From a virus (Duplodnaviria; Heunggongvirae; Uroviricota; Caudoviricetes), in IMG/VR virus record IMGVR_UViG_3300029850_000274, positions 76,794 to 140,793 of that record: a DNA stretch of 64,000 bases; one strand, written 5' to 3'. Positions 1,171 to 60,951 of the stretch are shown piece after piece (position 1 is the stretch's first letter; each line of letters opens with the position of its first letter). The notes beneath the pieces are model-generated. The model saw nothing but the letters and a program-made list of their open reading frames with translations, was not told where the DNA came from and did not search any database. Position numbers and translations under genes: made by a program.

Positions 1171-1173
1171 ACT

Positions 1174-1356: not shown

Positions 1357-1370
1357 CGTAAACCACAAAG

Positions 1371-1403
1371 GCACGATCTAAAAAAGATTGTGTCTTTTTT
1401 ATT
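1371..1403 (+). terminator. Rho-independent terminator
   Basis: Stem ACGATCT/AGATTGT (one G-U pair), loop AAAAA, followed by a TTTTTT run. Confidence 0.45.
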
Positions 1404-1461
1404 GTAACTATTTAAAATCCCGCTTTTATGTAGGGTAACTTAAGAAAGAAGGTATATTATT

Positions 1462-1824: not shown

Positions 1825-1844
1825 ATTTAGAAAGAAGGTATATT

Positions 1845-2243: not shown

Positions 2244-2256
2244 GAGGTTATTAATC

Positions 2257-2472
2257 ATGAAAATAATACATACAAACAACGATAGTTTATTTACAATCAA
2301 AGAAACGCCAAACGGGATTTTTGTTAAAGGGTTTGGTAATGACGATAATGAAATGTGTATACCCGATCATGAAATAGTAATGTTGTTAAATTATTACCAT
2401 AATTGTAAAGAAGGGTTAGAATCACAAGATTATATTAACGATAAACCATATACACTAAACGATATTAAATAA
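2257..2472 (+). CDS. hypothetical protein (71 aa)
   Basis: ORF with TAGGAGG RBS. Confidence 0.5.
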   Translation: MKIIHTNNDSLFTIKETPNGIFVKGFGNDDNEMCIPDHEIVMLLNYYHNCKEGLESQDYINDKPYTLNDIK

Positions 2473-2487
2473 AAGGAGTGTTTTAAA

Positions 2488-2850
2488 ATGGAACAATATT
2501 TATATGCTGATGAATATGATGATAATGAGATTAAAATTCTAACGGTTGGGCAACTGTTAGAATTTTTTAATAAATCGGATGATAAAAAGAACGGTTCAAG
2601 TTTAGATGATTATATTAAAGACAATATAAGAATGGATCTTATTGAACCGTTTTGCCCACATAAAGAAGCAGAAACGGTTGTTTGTGATTTACAACCATTA
2701 GCAAAACAGTATATCTTGCAAGAAGCTGAGAAGGTTTTTAATGGTATGCCGTGGGTAGATACTCAAGAAGAACTTGACAATGTATATCATGAGAAAATCA
2801 AGAACTTATATGATACGGTTGATTTTTCAGAGTTTGTGGCGTATTTATAG
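2488..2850 (+). CDS. hypothetical acidic protein (120 aa)
   Basis: ORF with AAAGGAG RBS. Confidence 0.55.
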   Translation: MEQYLYADEYDDNEIKILTVGQLLEFFNKSDDKKNGSSLDDYIKDNIRMDLIEPFCPHKEAETVVCDLQPLAKQYILQEAEKVFNGMPWVDTQEELDNVYHEKIKNLYDTVDFSEFVAYL

Positions 2851-2862
2851 ATTGAATATTAT

Positions 2863-2896
2863 AGACAAGTCAAAACACGACTTGTCTATTTTATTG
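2863..2896 (+). terminator. Rho-independent terminator
   Basis: AGACAAGTC ... GACTTGTCT stem (9 bp), then ATTTTATT. Confidence 0.55.
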
Positions 2897-2943
2897 AACT
2901 TATAAAGAAATAAAGTCCCGTAAAGGGCAGAAGGAAGGATATT

Positions 2944-3195
2944 ATGACAAAATATAAAGTGATTTTTGGTTATTTCAGCGAACTTGTAACAGTTGACGAA
3001 CCTACAACGGATTATGGTGCAATCTTAGATCTTGCGATCGATCAACTAGAATCTAATGGAAATATGGGCGTATTTGTTTCAGATGAAGATATAGAACGTG
3101 ATGGGATCACTGATGATATGTATATCACTGGTGGAAATCACGGACTGAACTTATATCACGGTGGTAATTTTATGATAGAAAGAGTTGACGAGTAG
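2944..3195 (+). CDS. hypothetical protein (83 aa)
   Basis: ORF with GAAGGAAGGA RBS. Confidence 0.5.
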   Translation: MTKYKVIFGYFSELVTVDEPTTDYGAILDLAIDQLESNGNMGVFVSDEDIERDGITDDMYITGGNHGLNLYHGGNFMIERVDE

Positions 3196-3210
3196 GAGGA
3201 GGAAAGAACA

Positions 3211-3402
3211 ATGGAAAAAACACAATTACATAAACCACAAACGATAGATATAGCCGTTGCGATTGTAGGAATTGCAATGGCTATTATTGCGTTTATAAAG
3301 ATCCCGCAAGCCTTTATATTAGAAGCGTTGTTGGTAATGATTACCGCTGTCTATATGCTTGCTTGCGTTGGATTTTTTGATGATGATACAGATACAGAAT
3401 AA
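3211..3402 (+). CDS. small membrane protein (63 aa)
   Basis: ORF with GGAGGAGG RBS. Hydrophobic core IAVAIVGIAMAIIAFI. Confidence 0.5.
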   Translation: MEKTQLHKPQTIDIAVAIVGIAMAIIAFIKIPQAFILEALLVMITAVYMLACVGFFDDDTDTE

Positions 3403-3421
3403 GAAAGAATGTAAACACACA

Positions 3422-4030
3422 ATGAGAACAAAACAGAACAAAACAATCAAGATCCTATTAGCCGTAGTACTCATATTTACGGCTTTTTTAATCTTTGGAA
3501 ATACTGTACACGCAAAGACAAAAAGAAGCACGTACAGAACGATAAACGGTATTTATAACAGTGACGGCACAATAGATACGGCAGATGGTTATTGTTGGAA
3601 AGTTCGCAAGGAATCGTATGCCTATCCAGGGACTACACTCGCAACTATAAAATTTAACACACACGGCACTAGAAACAAGCTCGATGATTCTATTGTAAAG
3701 ATCACGGCAAAGAACAGAAATATTCAGCTTGTAAACGATTATATACGACATGAATACGATCTAAATGCCTATAGAGTAAAGTATATCAGCACTGGCAAAT
3801 TAACCGATAAAATGATCCGTGAACGTGCTGTAAAGCATACGATTTATGTGGAAATTATTAAAAGTGTTTCTGCCGGAGGTAAACATGGAACGTATGGAAA
3901 AGGTTACTACCTTGCGTATAACAAACGTGTAAGAAAAGGAAAGCACGTGACAAGTTATTGTGTATGGAATCCTTGTAACGCCTATTGTGATGATGTAGAA
4001 GCCGTGGCAGATAATGGAAAAATCAGATAG
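3422..4030 (+). CDS. secreted protein with N-terminal signal peptide (about 203 aa), function unknown
   Basis: Internal Met at 3422 gives MRTKQNKTIKILLAVVLIFTAFLIFGNTVHA-KTK, which is signal-peptide-like. The 3359 start in the ORF track would overlap the previous gene. Confidence 0.5.
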   Translation: MRTKQNKTIKILLAVVLIFTAFLIFGNTVHAKTKRSTYRTINGIYNSDGTIDTADGYCWKVRKESYAYPGTTLATIKFNTHGTRNKLDDSIVKITAKNRNIQLVNDYIRHEYDLNAYRVKYISTGKLTDKMIRERAVKHTIYVEIIKSVSAGGKHGTYGKGYYLAYNKRVRKGKHVTSYCVWNPCNAYCDDVEAVADNGKIR

Positions 4031-4047
4031 AAAGAAGGTTGGAAGAA

Positions 4048-4284
4048 ATGAAACTTATAGCACAAACAATCAAAGGATATGAATATATGCACTCTAAAGA
4101 ACTTGCATTTTTTGTACCGAATGCAAGTGCAGATAAGATCTGTAAAATCATGAATGACGTTAGGTTCAGACTGAAAAACGAAAATGAAATCTATCATGTA
4201 TATGAATACGACAGTATGCAAGATTATTATGTTATGAACCGATTAAGTATGTATAAAGGTGTTGTAAAATTAAAAGCATTATAA
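4048..4284 (+). CDS. hypothetical protein
   Basis: ORF. ATG at 4048 follows GAAGGTTGGAAGAA. The 4039 start in the track is TTG. Confidence 0.45.
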   Translation: MKLIAQTIKGYEYMHSKELAFFVPNASADKICKIMNDVRFRLKNENEIYHVYEYDSMQDYYVMNRLSMYKGVVKLKAL

Positions 4285-4302
4285 ACCAGGAGGAACAATA
4301 GA

Positions 4303-4575
4303 ATGGAAATTTTAAAGATGACAAGAACAAACATGGTAGTGATTCAGACAGTGGAAAAGGAAGAACGTAACACTTTTGACATTGGAAAAATCAGAGTCTC
4401 AGCCTTGCCACCGATCGCAAAGAAAGATCTTATCGCAGAACTTAAAAGCAAAGGCTTCTGCGAAGGAATGATTTATACGGTATTACAATGCAAGCTGGAA
4501 GATCTAAACGGATATGTGAACGTATGGAAGTATGTAGCATATATCCTTGCTGTAGAACTGATGGAAAGATTATAA
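4303..4575 (+). CDS. hypothetical protein (90 aa)
   Basis: ORF with CAGGAGG RBS. Confidence 0.5.
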   Translation: MEILKMTRTNMVVIQTVEKEERNTFDIGKIRVSALPPIAKKDLIAELKSKGFCEGMIYTVLQCKLEDLNGYVNVWKYVAYILAVELMERL

Positions 4576-4592
4576 GAAAGTAGGTGGAAATT

Positions 4593-4769
4593 ATGATAGT
4601 AAGAAATGAATATCCTGACGGTAGAACGGAAATTTTCTGTAACACGCCTGATGAGTATAACGACTTATGCTGTGAGTACGATCTTGAAGGTTGCGGTAAC
4701 AGTGGAAAATATGTTGGATCTAGTTGGTCACACGATGATAAGAACAATGTAGATGTTTATTATAGATAG
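4593..4769 (+). CDS. hypothetical protein (58 aa)
   Basis: ORF with RBS AGGTGG and spacer AAATT to the ATG. This is the recurring AGGTGGAAATTATG cassette. Confidence 0.45.
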   Translation: MIVRNEYPDGRTEIFCNTPDEYNDLCCEYDLEGCGNSGKYVGSSWSHDDKNNVDVYYR

Positions 4770-4785
4770 AAAGGAATAGAGAATC

Positions 4786-5457
4786 ATGGAAAACGCAGAA
4801 AAGATTATCAATAAAATTAAGAAGGTACTGGAACTATCAAAGAACAATCCATCGGAAAAAGAAGCCCAGGCGGCAGCCTTAAAGGCACAGAAATTGATGG
4901 CAGAGTACCATATTTCTATGGAAGAAGTCAGCGGTATTGAAGATTCTGAAAATATTTCAGAAGAATGTACTAATGTAGGAACTGGGAACAAATGGAAATA
5001 TAGATTATCTACGATCATTGCAAGAAACTTTAGATGCCAACATTTTTATTATGGAAAATCCACTGTTGTATTTTATGGATACAAAACAGATGCAGAAATT
5101 GCAACAGAAACTTTCAAGTATCTTTTTAATATGGGTAATAAATTAGCAACTAAATTTTACAATAAGAAGAAAAAGGAATGTAAAGAAATTGGAATCAGTT
5201 TTTACGGGAAAGGCATTAAGAACTGTTTTCTTATTGGATTTTTAGATGGTATTGCAGAAATTTTGGAAAAACAATGTACAGCATTGATGATCGTGACACC
5301 AAAAGAAGTAGAAGAAGCCTTTAAGGAAAGAACAAAAGATTGTAAAACTACAAAAAACAGACTAAACACAAGAAGTTACTACGCAAAAGAATCATGGGAA
5401 GAAGGTAAACGTAGTGGAAAAAATGCTATCGGAAGTAGACAGCTTGCAATGGCATAG
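4786..5457 (+). CDS. hypothetical protein (223 aa); N-terminus resembles the DUF2786-type KI..KI.KLL.L...N.EaEAaaAl.kAq.Lm motif
   Basis: ORF with RBS. N-terminus KIINKIKKVLELSKNNPSEKEAQAAALKAQKLMAEYHI. Confidence 0.5.
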   Translation: MENAEKIINKIKKVLELSKNNPSEKEAQAAALKAQKLMAEYHISMEEVSGIEDSENISEECTNVGTGNKWKYRLSTIIARNFRCQHFYYGKSTVVFYGYKTDAEIATETFKYLFNMGNKLATKFYNKKKKECKEIGISFYGKGIKNCFLIGFLDGIAEILEKQCTALMIVTPKEVEEAFKERTKDCKTTKNRLNTRSYYAKESWEEGKRSGKNAIGSRQLAMA

Positions 5458-5473
5458 AAAGTAGGTGGAAAGA

Positions 5474-5722
5474 ATGAGTCGCAGAACGACTATGGAAGCA
5501 TTAGCGTGTCACATTGAACGAAAGTACAACACACTGTACTACACGGAAAATCCTCCGAACGCTGGAATTGATGATAGCTTACATGGTTACAAATACTTCT
5601 TATTATTCAAGAACACGTTCGGAATTTTTCGGAAGTATAGAACACAAGAAGAAGCAATTAACAGCATGACGGAAATTTTAAAAGAAGATCCGTCAGAATT
5701 ATTTAGTTACATAGCCAATTAA
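5474..5722 (+). CDS. hypothetical protein
   Basis: ORF. ATG sits after GTAGGTGGAAAGA, a variant of the repeated cassette. Confidence 0.45.
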   Translation: MSRRTTMEALACHIERKYNTLYYTENPPNAGIDDSLHGYKYFLLFKNTFGIFRKYRTQEEAINSMTEILKEDPSELFSYIAN

Positions 5723-5892
5723 AGGCTTTTACTACTCATGATGATATGAGTATACACCCTAACGGAAAGACTCGACTATTGAAGCTAATAGTTACTTTAA
5801 ATGAACGGAATGACTGTACTACTGGTTGATGGTAGTGACGTATTGGAACGGAAAAACGGTGGCGTATGGTAGATAAAAGAGTGCTTTTATCA

Positions 5893-5917
5893 GGCGGTTC
5901 AATTCCGCCCCTCGCCA
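5893..5917 (+). other. tRNA 3'-half-like element (T-arm plus 3' acceptor strand) without a matching 5' half
   Basis: GGCGG-TTCAATT-CCGCC forms a canonical T-stem and T-loop (TTCRANY). It is followed by CCTCGCC-A. No complementary GGCGAGG, D-arm or anticodon arm lies upstream within plausible distance. Confidence 0.3.
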
Positions 5918-6000
5918 CTTTTCACGATGGAAATTATCGTGTATAATATAAGAGAACTGTTAATATTTTAAAGTCCTGAATAGGCAGAAAGAAGGAAATT

Positions 6001-6480
6001 GTGTACGAGTTTAAAGAATTGATCTTGCCTGAACATTTTAGACACGCCTCATACGGAGGATTTTGTGTAAAACCTGGAATGTTTTATGGTGTAGAGAAAG
6101 AAACTGGAAAATTAGTTGCTACAACGGGCTGGAATGTAAATGGATTAACAAACATTTATATCCAACACGAGCCAAAGTCACAATGGAACAACGACTTATG
6201 GGAAGATCTTTACGATGATTATGGAAAACCTTTAATCACGATTGAAGAGAATGACTTGAAACGGATTAGTGATAAGGTTAAAGATTTTCAGAAGTCGGCA
6301 ATGGATTTTGAAACGTGGGCAGACGAAAACGGATATGATGAAGAATATTGTGAAGATCTTACTAGAGAAGAACTAGATCAGATAGAAGAATCTTATGAAT
6401 ATTATTACTTTATGGAATATCCTGAGTTTGTAATTCAGCTTTTAAAAGAACGTTGGGATTTAGAAAATTATGAAGAATAG
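6001..6480 (+). CDS. hypothetical acidic protein (159 aa), GTG start
   Basis: ORF. AGAAGGAAATT precedes the GTG. Confidence 0.45.
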   Translation: MYEFKELILPEHFRHASYGGFCVKPGMFYGVEKETGKLVATTGWNVNGLTNIYIQHEPKSQWNNDLWEDLYDDYGKPLITIEENDLKRISDKVKDFQKSAMDFETWADENGYDEEYCEDLTREELDQIEESYEYYYFMEYPEFVIQLLKERWDLENYEE

Positions 6481-6493
6481 GAAGGTGGAAATT

Positions 6494-6823
6494 ATGAAAT
6501 CATATAAAGAATACGATAGAGAATTTATCGGAGATAGTGATATTGCAGCTTTAATTTTTGTAGGCACAACAAAAGATGGATTGAAGGCAAACATCTTAAA
6601 TTTTGGCTCTGATGGAAGATATAATGCTTATGTTGTGGATGAGAACGCAAAGATCGGAGATCACTATACCTTAGAGATGGAGTTTGAAACGTCATCAGGT
6701 TTTAAGGCATGGCTTAAAATTTATGATGATGAAGGATTGACAGCAGATTATAGTGCAGACAAAATTAGAGTATATCGTGCTGGAGATTTTGGTTGTATTA
6801 TTCAGCTTATCGGAAAGAAATAA
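6494..6823 (+). CDS. hypothetical protein
   Basis: ORF with GGAAGGTGGAAATTATG cassette. Confidence 0.5.
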   Translation: MKSYKEYDREFIGDSDIAALIFVGTTKDGLKANILNFGSDGRYNAYVVDENAKIGDHYTLEMEFETSSGFKAWLKIYDDEGLTADYSADKIRVYRAGDFGCIIQLIGKK

Positions 6824-6913
6824 TAACGGAAAATTTAATACAAGAACAAAGTAATCTAGGAAGATGCAGAAATGTATCTTCCTTTTTTAATGGAAAGATA
6901 TGAGGTGGAAATT

Positions 6914-7351
6914 ATGAACAAATATAGAGATTATTATAGTGCAATTGTAGAAACAGAAAACGGATTAGATATTGATGTTTTGGAATTAGTTGATTGTGAG
7001 TTAGAACGACAGAAATATGGAGAACAACCAATCGTCGGAATGATTGCAAGTGATATTATCAATGAATTCAAAGAACATCAATTTACATGGCGTGACATTG
7101 TAGAGGTTCATGGAAAATATTATGCAGAGGAGTTCCCGATTAGCGGTATCATGGATGGTTCTGACGCATATCAGATTGATGATTTTTTAGATGCTGTAGC
7201 TGAAAAATACAATGTTGATCTTAGAAAAGAACAAATTAAAACTTATGTGATGGATAATATTGACTTCAATCCTGAGGAAGTAGAATTTGAGGCAGAGGAT
7301 TGTGGTTGCTATATTGATGGAAAACCTGAATGGTTTGATATAGAAGAATAG
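6914..7351 (+). CDS. hypothetical acidic protein
   Basis: ORF with GAGGTGGAAATTATG cassette. Confidence 0.5.
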   Translation: MNKYRDYYSAIVETENGLDIDVLELVDCELERQKYGEQPIVGMIASDIINEFKEHQFTWRDIVEVHGKYYAEEFPISGIMDGSDAYQIDDFLDAVAEKYNVDLRKEQIKTYVMDNIDFNPEEVEFEAEDCGCYIDGKPEWFDIEE

Positions 7352-7362
7352 AGGTGGAAATT

Positions 7363-7533
7363 ATGGTATGGAATCATATTAAATTTGAAGATGGATCTAA
7401 TCCATATATTTGTAAAACTGATAAAGAGCTGGAAAGAATGAAACGGAAATATGACCTTGTGCAGCTTGACGGAAATTTTTGGTTAGCAAAAGATCATAAG
7501 GCAAAAGCAGACTTAGGTGGATTAATGTTTTAA
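7363..7533 (+). CDS. hypothetical protein (56 aa; below the 60-aa cut-off of the ORF track)
   Basis: AGAGGTGGAAATTATG cassette followed by an intact 56-codon ORF (MVWNHIKFEDGSNPYICKTDKELERMKRKYDLVQLDGNFWLAKDHKAKADLGGLMF). Confidence 0.4.
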   Translation: MVWNHIKFEDGSNPYICKTDKELERMKRKYDLVQLDGNFWLAKDHKAKADLGGLMF

Positions 7534-7551
7534 AGATTAGGAGGAATGAAT

Positions 7552-7836
7552 ATGCAGACAGTAAAATTTGCAACAAAGGAAAATGATAAAGCAATATGTT
7601 GGTGTACGACAAATGATCTTGTCACATTCAGAGATTTTATGCAATACATTCTTGATAATACGAATAATCCACATGATTTTATGATTATTGATACCAAAAA
7701 AGATCTTGTCTATGACTTTTATAGAGTTGCAACGGAACAGTATGGCATGAGAAAAAGAACTTTTGAAGAAAGAATGAATGGTGTTCAGACTGGAAAATGG
7801 AGTAAGTATACAAAAGAAGAATTGAAAGCCTTATAG
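7552..7836 (+). CDS. hypothetical protein
   Basis: ORF. AGGAGG lies 7 nt before ATG 7552. The 7546 ATG is too close to the RBS. Confidence 0.5.
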   Translation: MQTVKFATKENDKAICWCTTNDLVTFRDFMQYILDNTNNPHDFMIIDTKKDLVYDFYRVATEQYGMRKRTFEERMNGVQTGKWSKYTKEELKAL

Positions 7837-7866
7837 AAAGTTTTATTACAGATAGGAGTGGAAATT

Positions 7867-8142
7867 ATGAAAGAAAATTATATTGTAGTTACATCAGGCG
7901 GAACAGTACGTGCAACATTAACAAGTAGAGTAGAAGAAATCTTAACTGAATTCAAGCCAAAAGGATGTCCGTTTGGAAATTATTCACTGTTAAATTTATT
8001 ACAAGATTGGGTTGGTATGTATGCATGGCAGTTGCCAAAGAATAAACCTATGTCAGTAGTTGAATGTATTGAACGATTGGATATGGATGGAACATCTATT
8101 TATAAAGAATCAATGATTCGATTGATTGAAGCAGTAGCATAA
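7867..8142 (+). CDS. hypothetical protein
   Basis: ORF with ATAGGAGTGGAAATTATG cassette. Confidence 0.5.
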   Translation: MKENYIVVTSGGTVRATLTSRVEEILTEFKPKGCPFGNYSLLNLLQDWVGMYAWQLPKNKPMSVVECIERLDMDGTSIYKESMIRLIEAVA

Positions 8143-8179
8143 AAGAAAAGTTTTATTACATGAATAGGAGTGACGAACA

Positions 8180-8524
8180 ATGGAAAATAAAACAAGATTA
8201 ATTACTTTATCTGATAGTCCTGGAATGGATGGAGAGTTAGTTATTTTTAGAACAAACGCACCTGCGGAAAGATTGAAAGCGTTAGAAGTAGAAAGCTGTA
8301 AAGCATATACAAACAATACTGATATTCCAGTTTGGGCAGGTGTATTGGAAAAAGAAGGTTATATATGCGATATTGTAGATTCGCACAGTCATGTAACACC
8401 ATATGAAACATCTTTTGTATGGAAAACAAAGTGTTATCCTTATATTACAGAATGTTATGACATTGATAATGTTATAAGTCTTATTAACGGATCAGAAGAA
8501 GAGAGAATTGCAAATTTTATTTAA
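8180..8524 (+). CDS. hypothetical protein (114 aa)
   Basis: ORF with ATAGGAGTGACGAACAATG. Its upstream intergenic stretch AAAGTTTTATTACA...ATAGGAGTG is duplicated at 7836-7866. Confidence 0.5.
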   Translation: MENKTRLITLSDSPGMDGELVIFRTNAPAERLKALEVESCKAYTNNTDIPVWAGVLEKEGYICDIVDSHSHVTPYETSFVWKTKCYPYITECYDIDNVISLINGSEEERIANFI

Positions 8525-8525
8525 T

Positions 8526-8711
8526 ATGTCTTTAGATATGGATTATGATAGCTCTGTTGATGACTACAGAGAGGATATGGAAATGCTGACTAAAAGCATT
8601 GGAAATTTATCTATAATAGATGATCCTCTGTTCCATGTATTACAGAATATTGCAGACAACAACGCAGAAATGGAAAACAAACTTGTCAATGCAGATGGAT
8701 CTATTAACTAA
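8526..8711 (+). CDS. hypothetical acidic protein
   Basis: ORF without a clear RBS. The alternative TTG start at 8508 overlaps the upstream gene. Confidence 0.3.
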   Translation: MSLDMDYDSSVDDYREDMEMLTKSIGNLSIIDDPLFHVLQNIADNNAEMENKLVNADGSIN

Positions 8712-8764
8712 TTAAATGTCAATTTTATTAAAATAATATTGTGTAAAAAGTGTGTAAAACATTA

Positions 8765-8792
8765 TTGACATTGTGTAGATATTGTGTATAAT
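8765..8792 (+). promoter_or_regulatory. Promoter of the hicAB operon with four GTGTA-containing repeats
   Basis: TTGACA (8765-8770), 16-nt spacer, TATAAT (8787-8792). ATTGTGTA or GTGTGTA repeats occur at 8738, 8750, 8770 and 8781. The ATG follows at 8818 after AAAGGAGA. Confidence 0.55.
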
Positions 8793-8817
8793 ATAAGTAA
8801 GCAAAGGAGACAATACA

Positions 8818-8991
8818 ATGAAGCAGAAAGATTTAATCAAGAAGCTTAAAGCAGGCGGATTTATCTTCGATAGGCATGGTAGTAACCATGATATCTACAC
8901 CAAAGGAGATATATCAGAATCAGTTCCACGGCACAAGGAAGTTGATGAAAGACTTGCTAGAGGTATTCTAAGAAGGAATGGGCTGTTATAA
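8818..8991 (+). CDS. hicA: HicA-family mRNA interferase toxin (57 aa; below the 60-aa cut-off of the ORF track)
   Basis: MKQKDLIKKLKAGGFIFDRHGSNHDIYTKGDISESVPRHKEVDERLARGILRRNGLL fits the HicA/YcfA pattern (K.L.k.GW...r.kGSHh.f.......v.vP.h.kel..g.l..il). Strong SD. Sits immediately upstream of hicB. Confidence 0.7.
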   Translation: MKQKDLIKKLKAGGFIFDRHGSNHDIYTKGDISESVPRHKEVDERLARGILRRNGLL

Positions 8992-9049
8992 AACAGCCTA
9001 TCCTTGGAAAATCTTATTTGCAATCATATATAAGAATAGAGGTGAAAAT

Positions 9050-9484
9050 ATGAAAGCAGTATATCCTGTATTATTTACAAAAACCGACGACGGAAAATAT
9101 TTAATTGAGGCACCAGATTTAAATGTATTAACGGAAGGAAAAGATATGTCAGATGCTATTAAAATGGCACGAGACGCAATGGAATTAACTTGTGTTTCTA
9201 TGGAAGATAGAGAGGTGGAAATTCCTAAACCAACAAATATTACAGATATCGATATTGCGAAAAGCACATTTTTTGATGAAGGAGAAACTATTATTTCATT
9301 GGTTGATATTGATTCAACAGAATATCGAAGAAAAATTGATACAAAATCTGTAAGAAGAAATGTTGCATTACCTAGTTGGTTAAATTATGAAGCAGAACAT
9401 TCTGGAATTAATGTTTCTAAAGTGTTACAAGATGCACTTATTCAAGTATTGAATGTTACTGATAGACCAAATTATAATAAATAA
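9050..9484 (+). CDS. hicB: HicB-family antitoxin (RNase-H-like N-domain plus C-terminal ribbon-helix-helix)
   Basis: MKAVYPVLFTKTDDGKYLIEAPDLNVLTEGKDMSDAIKMARDAMEL matches the HicB/UPF0150 pattern. C-terminal RRNVALPSWLNYEAEHSGINVSKVLQDALIQVL is RHH-like. RBS AGAGGTGAAAATATG. Four-base overlap with hicA. Confidence 0.65.
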   Translation: MKAVYPVLFTKTDDGKYLIEAPDLNVLTEGKDMSDAIKMARDAMELTCVSMEDREVEIPKPTNITDIDIAKSTFFDEGETIISLVDIDSTEYRRKIDTKSVRRNVALPSWLNYEAEHSGINVSKVLQDALIQVLNVTDRPNYNK

Positions 9485-17464: not shown

Positions 17465-17565
17465 CTAAATTTAGAGAATAGGAGTGAGAATTATGGAATT
17501 AATCGAGGTAGAAATTAGACCAGAAGTACGAGAACAGTGCAACAACTAAGAGAGGTGAGATTATC

Positions 17566-18516
17566 ATGGCAGCAACACAGTTTGAAGTTATTGAAGCAGT
17601 AAATAATAACAACGCAGAAGAATCTGAAACAAAGATTAAAAGACGCAAGGACGGAAATCCTAAATGGACTCGATCTAACAAGCAGAAAGGCGTATCATCT
17701 TTAGTGTATCCGATCAAGGACAGAAAACAATTTGCAGCCTTTAATGCATATTTTAGAGACCAGATTGATAAATCGTACACAGAGTACAAACGATATGTAG
17801 CTGCCAGAAACAATCTTTTGGTTACAGTTGGAAACAATACAGCGTATCGTATTTCTGACATTGTTAGACTCAAATGGGGCGATTTATTAGACGATAAGAC
17901 TCGTAAACAGGAAAAGAAAACAAAGAAATTTAGAACTGTATACTTTAACGACTTAGTAACCGAAGCAGTGGATATTTTCTTTGAAGCTGTCGCAGGAACT
18001 AAATATGATGTCAAGATTGATGGTGAAGTGCCAATGGATGATTATGTTTTCGGAACATGTAAATCTGGATCAGGACACATGACAGAAGCAAATGCTTTAG
18101 ACTTTGTTAAAAAAGGTGCTAAAGCAGTTGGAATCGAGGATAACATTGGTACACATACACTACGAAAGAACTTTGTGTATTGGACACTTGTTGATCATAA
18201 AGATGATCAGAACGTATTGTATACACTTATGAGATTATTGAATCATAGCAGTCCTGCAATGACGTTTTTATATGCTACAATTACAGAAGAGGAAACTCAT
18301 GTATTGTTTGATGATATTGCTCAGACATATAAGGATATTATCAGCGGAGCATTTAACGGATTAAAGGAAAATGTTATTAATGTGAGTTATGATAGAGTTA
18401 TGGAGATTATCAAGTGTGCTTATGAGACTGGCAAGGATGATGCAGATCAAAATGATAGGGTACATGAGGATAATATGCAGGCACTAAAAGAGTTGTTGGA
18501 AGGAGTTATTTTATGA
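17566..18516 (+). CDS. tyrosine recombinase (phage integrase family catalytic domain)
   Basis: Catalytic residues are arranged R (ISDIVRLKWGD) ... HxxR (THTLRKNF) ... H (LNHSSPAM) ... Y (TFLYA). Confidence 0.6.
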   Translation: MAATQFEVIEAVNNNNAEESETKIKRRKDGNPKWTRSNKQKGVSSLVYPIKDRKQFAAFNAYFRDQIDKSYTEYKRYVAARNNLLVTVGNNTAYRISDIVRLKWGDLLDDKTRKQEKKTKKFRTVYFNDLVTEAVDIFFEAVAGTKYDVKIDGEVPMDDYVFGTCKSGSGHMTEANALDFVKKGAKAVGIEDNIGTHTLRKNFVYWTLVDHKDDQNVLYTLMRLLNHSSPAMTFLYATITEEETHVLFDDIAQTYKDIISGAFNGLKENVINVSYDRVMEIIKCAYETGKDDADQNDRVHEDNMQALKELLEGVIL

Positions 18517-19259
18517 TTTATGTAACAGGAGATACACATGGAGACTGGATGACTCGATTAAACAGTCGTTCTTTCCCTGAAGGAGTAGAGTTAACTAAAG
18601 ATGATTACGTGATCATTTGCGGAGATTTTGGATTGTGGCATGACACAAAAGAAGAACGACATAATCTGGAATGGTTGGATAACAAACCATTTACTACTTT
18701 GTTTGTATGTGGGAACCATGAAAATTATGATCGGCTGTACGAATATCCTGTAGAAGAATGGAATGGCGGAAAGATTCATAAGATTCGTGATTCTATTTTT
18801 CATCTCATGCGAGGGCAGATATTTGATATCCAGGGAAAGAGATTCTTCACATTTGGCGGAGCAAGTTCCCATGATGTTCAGGATGGAATTTTAGAACAAG
18901 ACGATCCAAGAATTAACGAATGGTACAGAGATTACGACAAAATGTTTAGGATCAATCATACGTCATGGTGGAAAGAAGAGCTTCCTTCAGAGGAGGAAAT
19001 GACAGAAGGTATGATGAATCTGAAGCAGAATGGATTGCAAGTGGATTATATAATTACACATAGTCCATACGCATCTGTATTATGTCAAATTGATCAAGGA
19101 TCAGGAGTGTATAAAACAGATATATTGACGGATTATTTGCAAGAGATTAAAGAATCTGTTGAATATAAAAAGTGGTTCTTTGGACATATGCATGTGAACC
19201 AGAACTTTCCAGGAGATAATGCGATTGCAATTTACGAACAAATTATTAGGATTTTATAG
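18513..19259 (+). CDS. metallophosphoesterase (calcineurin-like Ser/Thr phosphatase or diadenosine tetraphosphatase fold)
   Basis: Motifs GDTHGD, GDFGLW and GNHENYD match GDxHG / GDxxDRG-like / GNHE. Confidence 0.65.
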   Translation: MIYVTGDTHGDWMTRLNSRSFPEGVELTKDDYVIICGDFGLWHDTKEERHNLEWLDNKPFTTLFVCGNHENYDRLYEYPVEEWNGGKIHKIRDSIFHLMRGQIFDIQGKRFFTFGGASSHDVQDGILEQDDPRINEWYRDYDKMFRINHTSWWKEELPSEEEMTEGMMNLKQNGLQVDYIITHSPYASVLCQIDQGSGVYKTDILTDYLQEIKESVEYKKWFFGHMHVNQNFPGDNAIAIYEQIIRIL

Positions 19260-19270
19260 GAGAATTTTGT

Positions 19271-19591
19271 ATGAAGATAAATACGATTAGACAAAATAAG
19301 GAAGAAAAGAAAGCAAACCAGAATCTTATGTGGATTTCAGCAGAGATTCCACCACTAAAACCAGATAACGCATCACGTTATATGAGATATAAAACATATC
19401 CTGTAATCGTGGATTACAAATATAATGATGGATGTGTGGACGAAGTGCTTGATTTCTGTGACTATGATTTTGAAGAAAAGAAATGGAAATTAGACAAGCC
19501 GCATAAAATCAGACAGTATTTTCCACTTCCAAGCAAGCACAAGGTAAAGCGTTCGAACAAAAAGAGAACACTTGTTCGAAAAATATCTTGA
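19271..19591 (+). CDS. hypothetical basic protein (106 aa)
   Basis: ORF with TAGGAGAA RBS. Confidence 0.45.
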   Translation: MKINTIRQNKEEKKANQNLMWISAEIPPLKPDNASRYMRYKTYPVIVDYKYNDGCVDEVLDFCDYDFEEKKWKLDKPHKIRQYFPLPSKHKVKRSNKKRTLVRKIS

Positions 19592-19663
19592 TTTTGTTCT
19601 GTAGTAGCATTATAATAAGAAGTGTAGAGATTCTTTGTTCACAACAAAAATTAACTTTCTTTC

Positions 19664-19701
19664 TTGCACCTATTGACAGGGTGCAAAAAGTATGGTATAT
19701 T
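19664..19701 (+). promoter_or_regulatory. Promoter with a palindromic operator flanking the -35 box (copy A)
   Basis: TTGCACC-ta-TTGACA-g-GGTGCAA. TTGACA at 19673-78, 17-nt spacer, TGgTATATT extended -10 (19693-19701). A near-identical 55-nt element recurs at 60229-60284. Confidence 0.55.
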
Positions 19702-19750
19702 TAATTCATGAAAATAAAAAATGCAACTGGGGAAAGTTGAGGGACGTAAA

Positions 19751-20200
19751 ATGAACGGATATACTAACAAAGAAAGAAAAGGAAACGATAACAGAAAAAG
19801 AAAAGAATATGTATATGGCAAATATCAAAATCCTCAAGTTTGGGGAATATATTTTGCAGATTTGCCGAAAATTGAAGGTAGTCACATCTTGCATGGGAAA
19901 AGACCAGTCATCGTATATTCTAATAATATTTGTAACAATACGAGCACAGAGATTAACGTGTATCCAATTACAAAAAAATTAAGGAACTGGATACCAACAC
20001 ATGTAACCATTTATCCAAATACCAGTAATGGATTAAAAATGGTATCGCAGGTGTATTTAGAGCAAGGAAGAACAATTCCAAAGAATAATCTTTTAGAGTA
20101 TTGGGGAAGAATATCTGATCTATCTTTAATGTTAAAAATAGGACATGGCATTTTAATACAAAACGGCATGTTATCGTACATGAATGCAATGGCATCCTAG
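19751..20200 (+). CDS. MazF/PemK/EndoA-family endoribonuclease toxin homolog, no adjacent canonical antitoxin
   Basis: GIYFADLPKIEGSHILHGKRPVIVYSNNICNNTSTEINVYPITKKLRNWIPTHVTIYP...YLEQGRTIPKNNL aligns with B. subtilis EndoA ([28 protein letters not shown]...AAIT...LPTHVEI...LLEQIRTIDKQRL). ATG 19751 follows GAGGGA. Confidence 0.6.
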   Translation: MNGYTNKERKGNDNRKRKEYVYGKYQNPQVWGIYFADLPKIEGSHILHGKRPVIVYSNNICNNTSTEINVYPITKKLRNWIPTHVTIYPNTSNGLKMVSQVYLEQGRTIPKNNLLEYWGRISDLSLMLKIGHGILIQNGMLSYMNAMAS

Positions 20201-20214
20201 AAATGGAGAATATT

Positions 20215-21231
20215 ATGAATAATAAAGAATTGATACAAAATTATATAGATTCTCATGTATCAGAATCACGTCGCCCAACATGGAATTGGTTATTAGATTC
20301 TGATATTGCGGACGACAATGAATCTGGGTTAACGTATGCACCAGGTACAATCCAAGAGGCTATATTATCAGATACTAGAGGTAAAAAAACCAAAAGTATG
20401 AATTCTATTAAAAAAAGATATGACCAGCTCGTTAAACTATATACTTATGCATATGAACAAAATTACATTAAATATAATCCATTTGTTAATGATAAATTTA
20501 TAAACTTGCAATTAGCAGTTGATATATATTTCTCAAATAGAGTTGGTGTTAATTATGTTACACCAGATAAAATAAATGCGTTTATTTCTAATTTGATGTC
20601 GTGTAATGCATCAACTGATACCAAATTGAATACTAGATTTCACATTGTGAGTTTATATAATGGGATAAATGGAAAGGAGCTAAGAAATCTAAAATTCTCA
20701 GATATTAATCAAAATGATTTAACAATTTTTGGGAAACCAGTCTCCAAAGATTTTATTGAGACATTGAATGAATATAAATTGAACATGGGAGATACGAATA
20801 TATATGATGATTTTGTATTAATACCACGGGAAAAATGTAATAATATAGAAGAATATCAAGCGGAACAAAAGAGGATATATAGTAACGTGCAGTCTCAATT
20901 AGAATTAACTGGCAACACTTTATCCTATAAGAAATTGACAACCATTGATGTTATTAATTCTGGTTTTATACAATATTTAAAATCTAAAATGGATATCAAA
21001 GCAATTGCAGATTTATATTATGTTAAATCAAAAGAAGGAATTGCACGATCTGTAATCGCACGTCAATTTAGTGATATTGCAATTGATTTTTATTATAATT
21101 ATTATATATCATATCGATTAAAAAAGAAGCAATTTAGTGATCGTCAAACTGTAATTGGTAAAACTATCGGTTATTTATATAACGATGAAGACTATAAGCA
21201 GTATCGTGTACGTCAAACTATGACAGAATAA
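20215..21231 (+). CDS. hypothetical protein (338 aa), N/Y/K-rich, downstream of the MazF-like gene
   Basis: ORF starts 3-15 nt after the MazF-like stop. ATG 20215 follows GGAG. Local AT content is higher than the surrounding DNA. Confidence 0.5.
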   Translation: MNNKELIQNYIDSHVSESRRPTWNWLLDSDIADDNESGLTYAPGTIQEAILSDTRGKKTKSMNSIKKRYDQLVKLYTYAYEQNYIKYNPFVNDKFINLQLAVDIYFSNRVGVNYVTPDKINAFISNLMSCNASTDTKLNTRFHIVSLYNGINGKELRNLKFSDINQNDLTIFGKPVSKDFIETLNEYKLNMGDTNIYDDFVLIPREKCNNIEEYQAEQKRIYSNVQSQLELTGNTLSYKKLTTIDVINSGFIQYLKSKMDIKAIADLYYVKSKEGIARSVIARQFSDIAIDFYYNYYISYRLKKKQFSDRQTVIGKTIGYLYNDEDYKQYRVRQTMTE

Positions 21232-21249
21232 AGGAAGGGAATTTTATAT

Positions 21250-21615
21250 ATGGACAATCAAATATTAAAAACATTGGTAGCGAATCAATCAAATCAAATG
21301 CGTGTTGATGTACTTGATTTGCACTCGTCAGAAATGTCATCTTGGTTTCTGAGTGAATATAAGATTCGAGCAGATGACGGAAAGATGAAGATCTATGGCA
21401 AAGATAAAGATCTTTCATATCATTGGATCGAGTTTATTCAAGATGACAATTTGTTCTCTCATATTAAGCAGGACGACATATTTGACATAATCAAATGCCT
21501 GCAATTTACATACAAAGAGAGATACAATGTTGGAATTAAAATACAGACAATAAAAAAGAAAGTAGAAGTCTTTGGTAAAACTTCTACTTTCACACAAACT
21601 AATAATTCTAACTAA
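21250..21615 (+). CDS. hypothetical protein (121 aa)
   Basis: ORF with AAAGGAAGGGAA RBS. Confidence 0.5.
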   Translation: MDNQILKTLVANQSNQMRVDVLDLHSSEMSSWFLSEYKIRADDGKMKIYGKDKDLSYHWIEFIQDDNLFSHIKQDDIFDIIKCLQFTYKERYNVGIKIQTIKKKVEVFGKTSTFTQTNNSN

Positions 21616-21690
21616 ACAAATAATAAATAACAAAAAAAGATTTTTTGAATCTACCGTGTTGGCAGCACGATAGAAAATCGAATTAAGTAT

Positions 21691-21751
21691 TTAGAATTGT
21701 TTAATAGATAAGGATATTATTATCCTTAAAACCATTATAACAATTCTAAAC
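21691..21751. repeat. Nested inverted repeats (cruciform-capable) at the end of the MazF-like cassette
   Basis: Outer arms TTTAGAATTGTT and AACAATTCTAAA (12 bp) flank an inner hairpin AAGGATA-TTAT-TATCCTT. A further CATGTT-N5-AACATG inverted repeat follows. Confidence 0.5.
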
Positions 21752-21808
21752 ATGTTCGTCAACATGAAAATTTTTCCAAAAAACTACAATTAAATATAGG
21801 AGTGATGT

Positions 21809-22459
21809 ATGAAATACATAATTACGAATGAAGAGTTCTATGTAAAAAGAGATCATGCAAGAAATAAATACGTTCGTGATAATCGTAAGTCTGAAGCTAC
21901 TCAGTTTACATCCAAGCAAGCAAAGCACATTTTAGGCTTGAAGCATAAATATACGTGGATGAAAGACGGATTTCATGCCAGAGAAATTGAGCTAGGTAAA
22001 GTTGGAAAACCTATGGAATCTAGTGAAATAATGCGTAAAGGTAATGGAAATTGCTTTATGGATTGGGAATGTGATAATACATTGATCGACAATATAGAGA
22101 CTGAGGAAAGAGCTATAGTAGGGCTTTTAGCATATGACTCAGATCAATTAGGAGAAAAGAAATTTGAGTTAGAACAGGCATTATCATATGCCGATTCTGC
22201 CAGAAGTGATATTCTTCATGCAATTGAGTTTAAAAAGATTGATGCTGCGAAACGTGCCGTGATTGTTGGGTATCTTAAAACCTTACAAGAATTGCATAGA
22301 AAGATCAAGAATTGTATTCGATACATAGAAGTGATGCAGAATTGCATGGATAATCAGAAAGATATATGTACTTTGAAGAAAGAATTAAAAGATGCAGAAC
22401 ATAAGTCGTATGTCGGCAGGACAAAGTATTATGAGCTTATCCAGAATATAATTGGGTAG
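21809..22459 (+). CDS. hypothetical protein (216 aa)
   Basis: ORF with ATAGGAGTGATGT before the ATG. Confidence 0.55.
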   Translation: MKYIITNEEFYVKRDHARNKYVRDNRKSEATQFTSKQAKHILGLKHKYTWMKDGFHAREIELGKVGKPMESSEIMRKGNGNCFMDWECDNTLIDNIETEERAIVGLLAYDSDQLGEKKFELEQALSYADSARSDILHAIEFKKIDAAKRAVIVGYLKTLQELHRKIKNCIRYIEVMQNCMDNQKDICTLKKELKDAEHKSYVGRTKYYELIQNIIG

Positions 22460-22655
22460 AGTTTCTTCCTTATTATATGTAATGACTCGCACAGGCATTT
22501 GTGCAAAATTAAAATGTAAATATTATGTTAGAAAGGAGATAAATTCCAGTACCGTCTTGGTACCTGAGATGGGTACGCAGGTATTGAGTGTCGATGAATA
22601 TCGATACAATGAAAAATGTAAAGTAACAAATTGATATATTAGAGAGGAAAATTAT

Positions 22656-23993
22656 ATGGATGAAAATAAAACGGGCGTTTGGGTACGCTGTATGAATGGC
22701 AAAGAAGTTAAATATAATCCACGAGATGGTATGGCGCCATTTAATGTAGGAGATGTTGTTGAGGTAGAGAATAATGATGTATATGCGATGTTTAAAATTG
22801 AAACAGTAGAATTCAAAGGAGATCTTCCAATAACCGAAACTTATATGATAAAGCCACATGCCAAAGTTGCTAAAACAACGCAACCTTGGCACGATATTAC
22901 ATTTGATGATGCTGAGTCGATTGAAATGGATGTGTATAGAGATGGTAAAGTAAATATTATTGTTCCATATTGGTATGAAAAACTGCGATATAGACTACAA
23001 AGTATAAAGTCGACAGAGGCAACTATTATAATCATAAGAAAAGGAGAAACAATGAATGAAAAATGCGAGATTAAGACAGGTACGATTCTAGCTGACAAAA
23101 TACAGGTTGATACATCAACTCTACCGCCACTTTCAGAAAGAAGAGTATCTGCTCTGTCACACTATCAACAAAAACCAATTACTGCAACGTCAGAACCAAT
23201 AAAGAATGAGGTTGGTGAGCTTTCAGCCACAGGGAAATCATGGATGATACATGACGACCGTGGGTTGAGTCCTTATGCACCAACACATATTGATTGGAAT
23301 GGTGAAATGAGTGCAACTTTAACATTTGCGCCAGAAAAATTGGATGAAATCATGAGTGAACTTACAGGAAACGAAGAGGAGAAAGAAATGTATACAAAGA
23401 ATTTAAAAGAAATGATTAAGAAACCGATTTATGTTGACAAAGAAATTACTGTGAAGGAACCAATGTTAGATAACAACGGTAAACAGATCGAAAAAGATGG
23501 TAAGCCAGTGTTTAAAGTAAAACATTATCATGGAATGGTTAAAATCTTATGGGTTAGTGGAGCAGAAACTGTTGCGTATGTAGAAGGAAATGATGTGTAT
23601 GACAGAGAAAACGGTTTCAAAACCTGTGTATTAAAATACCTTTGCGGCAACGCAGGTGCTCATGATGCAGTTGATTTTTGGACAAACAAATATGTGAAAT
23701 ATCCAAGTAGTTGCATTGAAGTGACAGAGAACCTGTGTAAATTAGAAGAGATCATGGAGAAGGATAAGTATAGAAAAGATGATCAGAAAGGTTTGCCTCA
23801 TGCAAAATTCTTAAGAAGAATAGGTTTGCTTTCAGGTGGTTCTGTTGCGGGTAAACTGATTTACAAAAAATGTGATATGAAATATGTCAATGAATTCAAA
23901 AAACTTGCCAAGAAATATTTTCCAGAACTTAAGTGTAAAGAAATTTATGTGAATGGTAACAAGAACGATGAAATTTTTGTAGCAATTAAATAA
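22656..23993 (+). CDS. hypothetical protein (445 aa)
   Basis: ORF with AGAGAGGAAAATTAT before the ATG. Confidence 0.55.
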   Translation: MDENKTGVWVRCMNGKEVKYNPRDGMAPFNVGDVVEVENNDVYAMFKIETVEFKGDLPITETYMIKPHAKVAKTTQPWHDITFDDAESIEMDVYRDGKVNIIVPYWYEKLRYRLQSIKSTEATIIIIRKGETMNEKCEIKTGTILADKIQVDTSTLPPLSERRVSALSHYQQKPITATSEPIKNEVGELSATGKSWMIHDDRGLSPYAPTHIDWNGEMSATLTFAPEKLDEIMSELTGNEEEKEMYTKNLKEMIKKPIYVDKEITVKEPMLDNNGKQIEKDGKPVFKVKHYHGMVKILWVSGAETVAYVEGNDVYDRENGFKTCVLKYLCGNAGAHDAVDFWTNKYVKYPSSCIEVTENLCKLEEIMEKDKYRKDDQKGLPHAKFLRRIGLLSGGSVAGKLIYKKCDMKYVNEFKKLAKKYFPELKCKEIYVNGNKNDEIFVAIK

Positions 23994-24014
23994 TACATAA
24001 AAAGGAGATAAATT

Positions 24015-32569: not shown

Positions 32570-32712
32570 GGAAACATAGCTCAGTTGGTAGAGCAGGCAA
32601 TACATAACATTCATTTTTCTGCCTCCATATAAGTATTTTTATATTATTTACATTTTAATTTTTCATCACATATAAATTGCCGACACAGGTTCGATTCCTG
32701 TTGTTTCCACTA
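32570..32712 (+). tRNA. tRNA gene interrupted by a ~68-nt AT-rich insertion in the anticodon loop (anticodon possibly CAU)
   Basis: Acceptor GGAAACA/TGTTTCC (7 of 7 pairs), D-arm GCTC-AGTTGGTA-GAGC, anticodon stem GGCAA (32596-600) pairing TTGCC (32677-81), T-arm ACAGG-TTCGATT-CCTGT, discriminator A. 76 nt lie between the anticodon-stem halves where 7 are expected. Confidence 0.5.
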
Positions 32713-60244: not shown

Positions 60245-60282
60245 TTGCACCCGTTGACAAGGTGCAAAAAGTATGATAAGAT
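60245..60282 (+). promoter_or_regulatory. Promoter with palindromic operator flanking -35 (copy B of the 19664 element)
   Basis: TTGCACC-cg-TTGACA-a-GGTGCAA, 17-nt spacer, TGaTAAGAT (60274-60282). Preceded by the same AATTAACTTTCTTTC leader as copy A. Confidence 0.55.
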
Positions 60283-60312
60283 ACTAATATGTTAAGGAAA
60301 GGAGATGTGAAA

Positions 60313-60951
60313 ATGAGAAAAAGATTTTTAATGAAAGTTGTCTCGTTTAGTTTTTTAGCTATGTGTTCAGGGTTTATAACTCATACAGTTAAAGCAGAGG
60401 AGCGACCCTCGGTAGAGGTTTCAACCTTATCAACAGAGACAACTGTTACAGAAAATAAACAAGACAATGTGATTTCAAACAACCCAATTAACCAAAGCGT
60501 TGCATTAAAAGATGTTCATGAGCATTATCAGAAATGTAAGAAAGCTGATGAGGAGAAAGCAAGGCAGATTCGATTAGAAAAACTTCGAAAGAAACGATTG
60601 CGAATTAAACGACAACGGTTGAAGCGAAAGCAAGAACTTGAAAAGAGTTCACTTGGAACATTTTTGATCACGGCATATTGTCCATGTTATGAATGTTCTG
60701 AAGGATATGGATCTAAGATTGCTTGGAATCATGCAGGGCATAGATTTGCTCGACCGTATCATACGATTGCGGTTGATAAAAACATTATCCCTTATGGAAC
60801 AAGAGTCAAGATTGAGGGATACGGTGATACAATCTTTGTGGCAGAAGATTGTGGAGGCAAAGTAAAAGGAATGCATGTAGACGTGTTCAAATCAACACAT
60901 TCCGAAACAATAAATGTGCAACAGCACAGAAAAATATATGTAGTGAAGTAA
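60313..60951 (+). CDS. secreted 3D-domain protein (MltA / YuiC-like cell-wall-binding lytic-transglycosylase fold)
   Basis: Signal peptide MRKRFLMKVVSFSFLAMCSGFITHTVKA. Lys/Arg-rich linker. C-terminal 3D domain TAYCPCYECSEGYGSKIAWNHAGHR...TIAVDKNIIPYGTRVKIEGYGDTIFVAEDCGGKVKGMHVDVF. Confidence 0.6.
   Translation: MRKRFLMKVVSFSFLAMCSGFITHTVKAEERPSVEVSTLSTETTVTENKQDNVISNNPINQSVALKDVHEHYQKCKKADEEKARQIRLEKLRKKRLRIKRQRLKRKQELEKSSLGTFLITAYCPCYECSEGYGSKIAWNHAGHRFARPYHTIAVDKNIIPYGTRVKIEGYGDTIFVAEDCGGKVKGMHVDVFKSTHSETINVQQHRKIYVVK

Follow-up and report, generated by a model that had tools for sequence, protein, structure and literature searches.

A putative integrase-fold repressor encoded beside a MazF-like gene in a probable immunity operon of a large uncultivated gut phage

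To our knowledge, master repressors with an integrase fold have been described so far only for the SPbeta-like phages of Bacillus. These proteins, MrpR, YopR and SroF, recognise a repeated element present at a number of intergenic sites (PMC10516654; bioRxiv 10.1101/2025.11.27.690993), and SroF forms specific, co-evolving pairs with a LexA-controlled antirepressor, Sar (bioRxiv 10.1101/2025.11.27.690993). The host RNase MazF degrades the mRNAs of phi3T and SPbeta with the exception of the sro repressor operon, so that lysogeny is favoured; products of the sro operon activate host MazF (SroA and SroB free it from MazE), and AimX and YosL inhibit it (bioRxiv 10.1101/2025.11.27.690993; bioRxiv 10.64898/2026.08.06.743204; PMC10769878). 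Here we consider an operon in a 64-kb stretch of phage DNA (positions 76,794 to 140,793 of IMG/VR record IMGVR_UViG_3300029850_000274), referred to below as the window. Its first gene encodes a MazF-like endoribonuclease and is directly followed, as an original prediction made from the sequence had noted, by open reading frames (ORFs) of 338 and 121 amino acids (aa).

We read this region, with a probability of about 0.6, as a lysis-lysogeny control (immunity) operon in which the MazF-like gene is co-transcribed with the gene for an integrase-fold repressor. The proposed layout runs from a LexA-type box through promoter P1, an operator with promoter P2, the mazF-like gene, the repressor gene and orf121, with a convergent antisense RNA over the 3' end (Table 1). 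The 338-aa protein would bind the operators and repress its own operon, an autoregulatory arrangement, together with two other transcription units, and the MazF-like protein would be an active, sequence-specific RNase produced alongside it. Compared with the described systems, the locus would work like SroF/MrpR repression and like a classical immunity region; it is neither a member of the SroF sequence family nor a canonical MazEF pair.

The evidence begins with allelic exchange among related genomes, which we sorted into five cassette types, A to E. Nucleotide identity to type-B loci is 93-100% up to ~19638, 41-80% inside the replaced segment and >85-95% from ~21150. These sharp steps define an exchange unit consisting of the operator with P2, mazF and the 338-aa gene minus its last ~28 codons. 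The products of orf106, orf121 and orf216 are 92-100% identical across the A/B swap, and a comparison of types A, B and C (L104) gives identities of 94-97% for the neighbouring integrase, 71-83% for MazF and 57-67% for the putative repressor. More distant phages, with integrases 70-76% identical, retain the order of mazF, a ~345-aa gene and a ~113-135-aa gene, also where the upstream genes differ, and in every relative found mazF and the repressor gene are adjacent, separated by 7-14 nucleotides (nt) or overlapping.

This pattern bears on the original prediction, which took the block for an acquired moron, more AT-rich than its neighbours and ending in nested inverted repeats. The unit is present in every lineage member found, distant ones included, and a moron bounded by the repeats at 21690-21750 is rejected, since allelic replacement already stops within the 338-aa gene (~21150). 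The repeats themselves exist, but they lie in conserved backbone DNA, and no mobile block ends at them. The AT-richness can likewise be seen (GC content of 0.287-0.297 vs ~0.33 overall), but it is marginal, and several other 1-kb bins are as low.

An operator-controlled promoter had been proposed in front of mazF, and P2, the top sigma-A-type match within 7.5 kb, does have its -35 element bracketed by the arms of an inverted repeat, from which we predict repression. The -35 and -10 of P2 are retained in all five cassette types, and each type has an inverted repeat at the same place with a different sequence (Table 1). Judged from these sequences, the repeat has the look of a protein-binding site whose specificity has changed in step with the protein that recognises it. 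Nor is the site confined to the operon. O2 lies ~40 kb to the right of O1, 5' of the genes for a secreted 3D-domain protein (60289..60951) and an NAD-dependent ligase. An IMG/VR scan with the A-type pattern identified a third class of operator in the same genomes, ~2.9 kb left of window base 1; together with its promoter it stands at the far side of a ~4-kb ORF-poor region, from where the leftward gene arm is driven. Each type-A genome thus has three classes of site, every one bracketing the -35 of a sigma-A-type promoter.

The distal promoter in front of the 3D-domain gene carries the A-type operator in A genomes and the B-type operator AAATGC-TATTGACAA-GCACAT in 5/5 type-B genomes, and all 13 of the 13 paired A and B genomes are concordant. 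Because the distal operator matches the cassette type, a factor encoded in the exchange unit dictates the sequence at a promoter 40-50 kb away; for the same reason, the cassette sets an immunity-like specificity and is not an acquired moron. The 338-aa protein is the sole DNA-binding candidate in the exchange unit, and we therefore infer that it represses a small regulon. The repressor/operator part of our reading is well supported by this natural co-variation, and the cassette types would accordingly correspond to immunity types that are heteroimmune to one another. As observations in their own right, the ORF-poor region (L262 5200-9340, with window 1-1460 inside it) contains repeated ~30-nt motifs and lies between divergent gene arms, and the second gene of the leftward operon has a weak likeness to replication-initiator or winged helix-turn-helix proteins.

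The 338-aa product had been left as an anonymous N/Y/K-rich protein; it is better described as a putative DNA-binding protein with an integrase fold, of the SroF/MrpR kind, with distant and co-varying operators. Its sequence matches are weak, yet all are to tyrosine recombinases (phrog_1 at 2e-9; Phage_int_SAM_5 in 5/10 members), and a profile search of all PDB sequences with the family gave XerA box I alone (E 0.23). A first AlphaFold2 model, built on 8 sequences, was too poor for use (predicted local distance difference test score, pLDDT, 54). The model built on ten family members, two distant ones having been added, reached a pLDDT of 73.8 and a predicted TM-score of 0.62, and the top 23 PDB matches that Foldseek returned for it were all tyrosine recombinases or YopR. 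The modelling thus strongly supports the core-binding plus catalytic-domain (CB + CAT) architecture of a tyrosine recombinase. The C-terminal 28 residues are conserved across types and include an invariant, acidic-aromatic tail, YLYKDEDYKKY. The family is confined to this phage lineage: a collection of 5.8 billion proteins contains 7 clusters of it, and one of 1.84 billion adds 2 full-length representatives.

An integrase fold, combined with short inverted repeats whose 9-nt spacer makes them resemble core sites, could also describe an active tyrosine recombinase (integrase or resolvase) acting at those repeats. We consider this very improbable. The R-K-H-R-H/W-Y set is incomplete in the family: every member has N, S, D or E in place of the box I Arg, box II lacks its His/Arg, no His is invariant, no HxxR box is present and a single invariant Arg stands near the C-terminus; fixing the position of the nucleophilic Tyr would take a residue-level structural alignment. 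With the box I Arg replaced and the His/Arg boxes lost, the protein has the integrase fold but is incapable of recombination. In addition, the repeats always bracket the -35 of a strong promoter, at three loci, and a distinct gene 1.2 kb upstream (17566..18516) encodes a recombinase whose motifs are intact. In that recombinase the box I Arg, an HTLR box and a C-terminal His/Tyr are preserved; it matches Pfam at 9.9e-14, is Xer-like in NCBIfam and from its sequence looks catalytically competent, and it could serve the phage as integrase or as dimer resolvase. The idea that the 338-aa protein is a recent paralogue of it was discarded, since profile comparison found no similarity between the two.

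Several features are shared with SroF and MrpR (YopR). Both have a CB + CAT fold with the catalytic residues lost (PMC10516654; bioRxiv 10.1101/2025.11.27.690993), operators at several promoters that lie far apart in the genome of a large Bacillota phage, different types of specificity among related phages, a LexA box nearby that could provide an SOS input, and a connection to a MazF RNase. Their sequences, however, show no detectable similarity (12% identity), the operon here contains a phage-encoded MazF where theirs contains sroA-E, and the host would be a gut member of the Bacillota rather than Bacillus; arbitrium genes did not turn up here, though no search was aimed at them. The comparison with host MazF co-option by phi3T and SPbeta runs along similar lines: a repressor operon is wired to a MazF RNase that spares the operon's own mRNA (here by analogy), with the difference that the RNase in our case is phage-encoded and sits inside the repressor operon. 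As in the heteroimmune temperate phages lambda, 434 and 21, exchange between otherwise near-identical genomes takes the repressor gene and its operators together. The repressor fold differs from theirs, and here an RNase gene lies inside the exchanged unit. Because the operators are dispersed over >40 kb, the distal sites must be converted too, unlike those of lambda, 434 and 21. These comparisons suggest that the same repressor solution, without sequence similarity, occurs in a ~160-kb phage family abundant in human-gut metagenomes, and the five natural repressor/operator types offer a data set for the DNA-recognition code of the fold and for heteroimmunity among gut phages.

The assignment of the first gene to the MazF/EndoA family, made in the original prediction, is borne out. 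Its product matches Pfam PemK_toxin (PF02452) at 1.7e-15, with 57.6 bits against a cut-off of 23.1, and PHROG 1936, 'MazF-like growth inhibitor'; residues 31-144 align with solved MazF/EndoA structures (E 3e-10 to 2e-8), and the protein is ~40% identical to Bacillus MazF. The catalytic residues of B. subtilis MazF are R25 and T48, and loss of the corresponding pair had been named as a point to check. On alignment with the MazF/EndoA structures, the catalytic Arg (GKRPV) and Thr (YPIT) are both retained, as is the LEQxRT motif. Across alleles, G[KL]RPV and YP[ILM]T are found in types A, B, C and E, and type D has YPLS, with Ser for Thr. From these motifs, the protein is probably an active sequence-specific RNase.

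The start of mazF is at 19751, behind a GAGGG Shine-Dalgarno sequence. An upstream ATG at 19721 was rejected as the start, as locus L001 has a 1-nt insertion between 19721 and 19751 and an identical protein. The N-terminal extension, absent from canonical MazF, had been given as 10 basic residues and is in fact ~25-30 residues long, composed of an invariant MNGYT, a low-complexity K/R/N/E-rich linker with indels, and a conserved YxYG[KR][YF]xxPxVW. The hairpin in the 5' untranslated region (UTR) is present in all five cassette types despite diverging flanks. A single disrupted mazF was seen, in a type-B genome (L051 6001-6357, IMGVR_UViG_3300045988_120021), where a TTA-to-TGA nonsense change ends MazF at residue 118 and a 21-nt in-frame deletion affects the N-terminal linker; the repressor gene of this genome is intact. 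The converse, an intact mazF with a broken partner gene, was never seen.

In agreement with the original prediction, no MazE/PemI-like ORF was found upstream of mazF. The product of orf106 (19271..19591) has no family match and does not co-vary with the cassette, and the gene is missing from relatives L108 and L109. A small ORF at 19588..19704 was dismissed as a hidden antitoxin: it overlaps both promoters and lies in the divergent, indel-rich part. The type III toxins (ToxIN/AbiQ) share the Kid/MazF-like fold, and a ToxI-type RNA antitoxin is excluded because there are no tandem repeats in 19200..19750. The PADLOC and NCBIfam libraries contained no model for the MazF-like protein, the 338-aa protein, orf121 or such a pair.

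With MazF intact and other antitoxin candidates absent, the 338-aa protein could itself be the antitoxin of a reversed type II toxin-antitoxin (TA) system, serving at the same time as autorepressor and neutralising MazF perhaps through the tail YLYKDEDYKKY, for prophage or episome maintenance or for abortive exclusion. We regard this as possible, if doubtful, and it is compatible with a repressor function. The constant adjacency of the two genes would fit, and so would the conservation of the partner's last 28 residues and of the MazF core across types; the operon's own promoter bears an operator, as in the autoregulation of type II TA systems (predicted here), and the only broken copy is the mazF nonsense allele with its partner intact. 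A self-contained TA system, however, has no need of operators at two distant transcription units, and the partner, at 338 aa and folded throughout, is unlike the small labile antitoxins. Moreover, linkage accounts for the co-variation, and a pair of this kind is without a model in PADLOC and NCBIfam. The functional tie between mazF and the 338-aa gene that the original prediction had suspected can be counted as supported, but co-variation alone is explained by linkage. The locus shares with MazEF/PemIK (Kid-Kis), including B. subtilis EndoA, the MazF fold, the catalytic Arg/Thr, LEQxRT and an operator at its own promoter, and differs in lacking MazE/PemI, in having the toxin gene first, in the N-terminal extension, and in a partner that is an integrase-fold protein with operators at other promoters too.

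What MazF would contribute to a repressor operon is most likely, by analogy with phi3T and SPbeta, a post-transcriptional arm of lysogeny control. It would cut the phage's own late or replication-region transcripts or those of superinfecting relatives, and a site-poor lysogeny region would escape cleavage. The repressor may double as a check on MazF, restraining it in the manner of an antitoxin. The motif distribution was assessed with the Bacillus-type site UACAU(A), a stand-in for the motif of this ~40%-identical MazF. On the sense strand, UACAU occurs at 0.88 per kb left of 21,500 and 2.24 per kb right of it, and UACAUA at 0.28 and 0.96 per kb, making the sites ~2.5-3.5 times rarer on the left; the maximum-likelihood change point falls at 21,500, the operon end, for both motifs. 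No such step is seen for the reverse complements. Among the 4096 hexamers UACAUA ranks ninth in over-representation, and it is absent from mazF and the repressor gene in 5/6 cassettes. We take the UACAU step as no more than suggestive of a selective MazF RNase. A bolder combination, which we put forward very tentatively, is that the phage has internalised the MazF arm that the Bacillus arbitrium phages borrow from the host: MazF would destroy UACAU-rich transcripts right of 21.5 kb, or those of heteroimmune superinfectors, and spare the lysogeny region, and the repressor would be its antitoxin, so that a single two-protein switch would be diversifying into immunity types.

Alternatively, MazF could be a stand-alone RNase for host takeover or exclusion, tied to the repressor by co-transcription only. 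MazF-like genes are frequent single morons in other gut and Lactobacillus phages, where they have no ~340-aa partner, and the PHROG 1936-type genes in the other phages examined, although of the same protein family, are single genes within replication modules without an integrase-fold partner; linkage would again explain the co-variation. We think it unlikely in view of how persistently the operator-mazF-repressor arrangement is kept, in five types and in phages with 70-76% identical backbone proteins, despite differing upstream genes. The mazF position is conserved in every cassette type and the gene is intact in all but the L051 allele. As a caution, phage 'MazF-like growth inhibitor' genes should not be annotated as simple morons, and the presence of mazF in this operon is relevant to the question of why Bacillota phages tie MazF into their lysis-lysogeny switches.

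Upstream of the exchanged unit, the Firmicutes-type LexA box is the sole exact GAAC-N4-GTTC in the window, which with 0.56 expected is not significant by itself. Its half-sites are invariant and its central N4 variable in every lineage, and it is retained in L108 and L109, where it is intergenic since orf106 is absent. P1 is conserved in all alleles and distant loci and reads into the operator, P2 and mazF. In classical TA systems, toxin in excess frees the antitoxin from DNA (conditional cooperativity), and with this precedent the MazF-fold protein might be pictured as an SOS-induced antirepressor, a counterpart of Sar: LexA cleavage would fire P1, and the MazF-like dimer would strip the repressor from its operators. 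The only LexA-type box in 64 kb does stand just 5' of P1, with mazF the first gene downstream, and MazF changes with the repressor type, as in the Sar-SroF pairs (bioRxiv 10.1101/2025.11.27.690993). We nevertheless find an antirepressor distinctly improbable. P1 would also read the repressor gene, so that the repressor/MazF ratio would not obviously shift; the conserved catalytic Arg and Thr (Ser in one type) favour a working RNase over a mere binder; and the LexA box lies 5' of the -35, outside the promoter core.

Several observations weigh against an immunity operon with an integral MazF arm. A simple induction model would not lead one to expect the repressor gene behind a LexA-controlled promoter. 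In place of the 15-26-bp asymmetric box that SroF and MrpR read as monomers, the operators here are short and symmetric repeats around the -35, and scans of type-B genomes with two patterns did not recover the third operator. Because mazF sits between the operator and the repressor gene, hitch-hiking suffices to explain its co-variation with the repressor, which proves no interaction. A step as strong as that of UACAU, which ranks 11th by likelihood ratio, occurs somewhere in 11/176 comparable pentamers, so the UACAU step is not exceptional, and one UACAUA is conserved within orf121 (21507). As for lysogeny, no integrated copy or host was found among the 185,579 species-representative genomes searched. 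Of the three readings in the original prediction (a reversed or novel TA system, an RNase directed at host mRNAs, and an exclusion module expressed from a prophage), the last comes closest in spirit to the immunity operon that we favour; its prophage element is one that we infer from the putative repressor, the LexA-type box and the anti-repressor (Ant/Bro) genes of the window.

Table 1. Positions in the window of the features discussed, and operators of the five cassette types
Feature	Sequence	Position	Strand	Remarks
LexA (Cheo)-type box	GAACACTTGTTC	19566..19577		Firmicutes-type; 10 nt 5' of P1 -35
Promoter P1	TTGATT-17-TATAAT	19588..19616	+	backbone-encoded, 5' of swapped cassette; from scan
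Allelically replaced segment		19639..21150	+	nucleotide identity profile against type-B loci; type C same pattern
Operator O1	TTGCACC-N9-GGTGCAA	19664..19686		brackets P2 -35; arms 19664-19670 and 19680-19686
Promoter P2	TTGACA-17-TATATT	19673..19701	+	TG extension; 11/12 matches
5'-UTR hairpin	CAACU-N6-AGUUG	19724..19739	+	abuts mazF Shine-Dalgarno sequence; read from alignment
mazF-like endoribonuclease gene		19751..20200	+	149 aa; Pfam, PHROG and PDB matches
Putative repressor gene		20215..21231	+	338 aa; integrase-fold (SroF/MrpR-like), catalytically dead; GGAG ribosome-binding site
orf121		21250..21615	+	third operon gene; 121 aa; no recognisable family
Candidate antisense small RNA		21548..21727	-	~180 nt; convergent with operon; overlaps orf121 3' end
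Minus-strand promoter	TTGACG-17-TATAAT	21734..21762	-	TG-extended; 11/12 matches; would serve antisense candidate
Operator O2	TTGCACC-N9-GGTGCAA	60245..60267		perfect arms; brackets -35 TTGACA of promoter 60254..60282
Type A operator	TTGCACC / GGTGCAA			spacer 9 nt
Type B operator	AAATGC / GCATAT			spacer 9 nt
Type C operator	(TTA)ATTGGCAC / GTGGCAAT(TAA)			spacer 9 nt
Type D operator	AACTAAAC / GTTTAGTT			spacer 17 nt
Type E operator	ATTACCAATC / GATTGGTAAT			spacer 17 nt

Searches with the product of orf121 gave no Pfam, PDB or PHROG match, and its homologues were found in this lineage only. The gene is present in all lineages, lies outside the A/B swap (92-95% identical) and does not co-vary between types A and B. 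The intergenic segment behind it (21616..21808) is more conserved than the flanking genes, most distant relatives included. On the minus strand we find a candidate antisense RNA with a 5' hairpin, a hairpin with an invariant CUGCCAA loop, and an intrinsic terminator (21591..21558) with a U-run inside orf121. The promoter that would serve it shares bases with the right arm of the outer inverted repeat (21690-21701 / 21739-21750), and its TTGAC and TGTTATAAT columns do not vary among the 33 sequences. When the three hairpins were evaluated over 33 distinct sequences, 97.7% of the hairpin cells were paired on the minus strand vs 88.1% on the plus strand, with 94 G.U cells on the minus strand vs 2 on the plus strand; compensatory change was seen in 8 pairs, and the terminator was 100% paired. 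An Rfam search of 19400-22000 returned no family. Given the strand-specific pairing, the minus-strand promoter and the terminator, the nested cruciform of the original prediction most plausibly represents the promoter and 5' hairpin of this candidate antisense RNA.

The whole window is phage DNA, and its sizeable ORFs are all on the plus strand. Besides the Ant/Bro genes, it encodes a DnaD-like loader, a tyrosine recombinase, NAMPT, a DnaB-type helicase, a Toprim primase-like protein, a RecJ-like exonuclease, a DNA polymerase III (Pol III) alpha subunit, an ExoV/Dda-like helicase and an NAD-dependent ligase. IMG/VR holds >50 near-identical contigs of 80-169 kb. A megablast search with 17500-24000 gave zero matches in the phage and plasmid collections, and in a comparison of Pol III alpha the nearest cultured relatives are large Bacillota phages at ~33% identity. 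The source is most likely a large uncultivated Bacillota gut phage of ~150-170 kb.

A few minor features of the window and its relatives may be recorded here. In relative L108 (982-1491), a Phd/YoeB toxin-antitoxin pair, with no counterpart in the window, lies amid Ant/Bro genes. On the plus strand, CCAGA is absent from the first 9.1 kb of the window vs 91 occurrences in the remainder, and GGAGA from the first 6.5 kb vs 120; the striking absence of some G-rich pentamers suggests that the left end (1-9100) is a compositionally distinct segment. Finally, window 32570-32709 gives an Rfam tRNA match of 140 nt that covers the full model at 46.2 bits, above the gathering score; it was not called by ARAGORN and may represent an interrupted or intron-bearing tRNA-like element.

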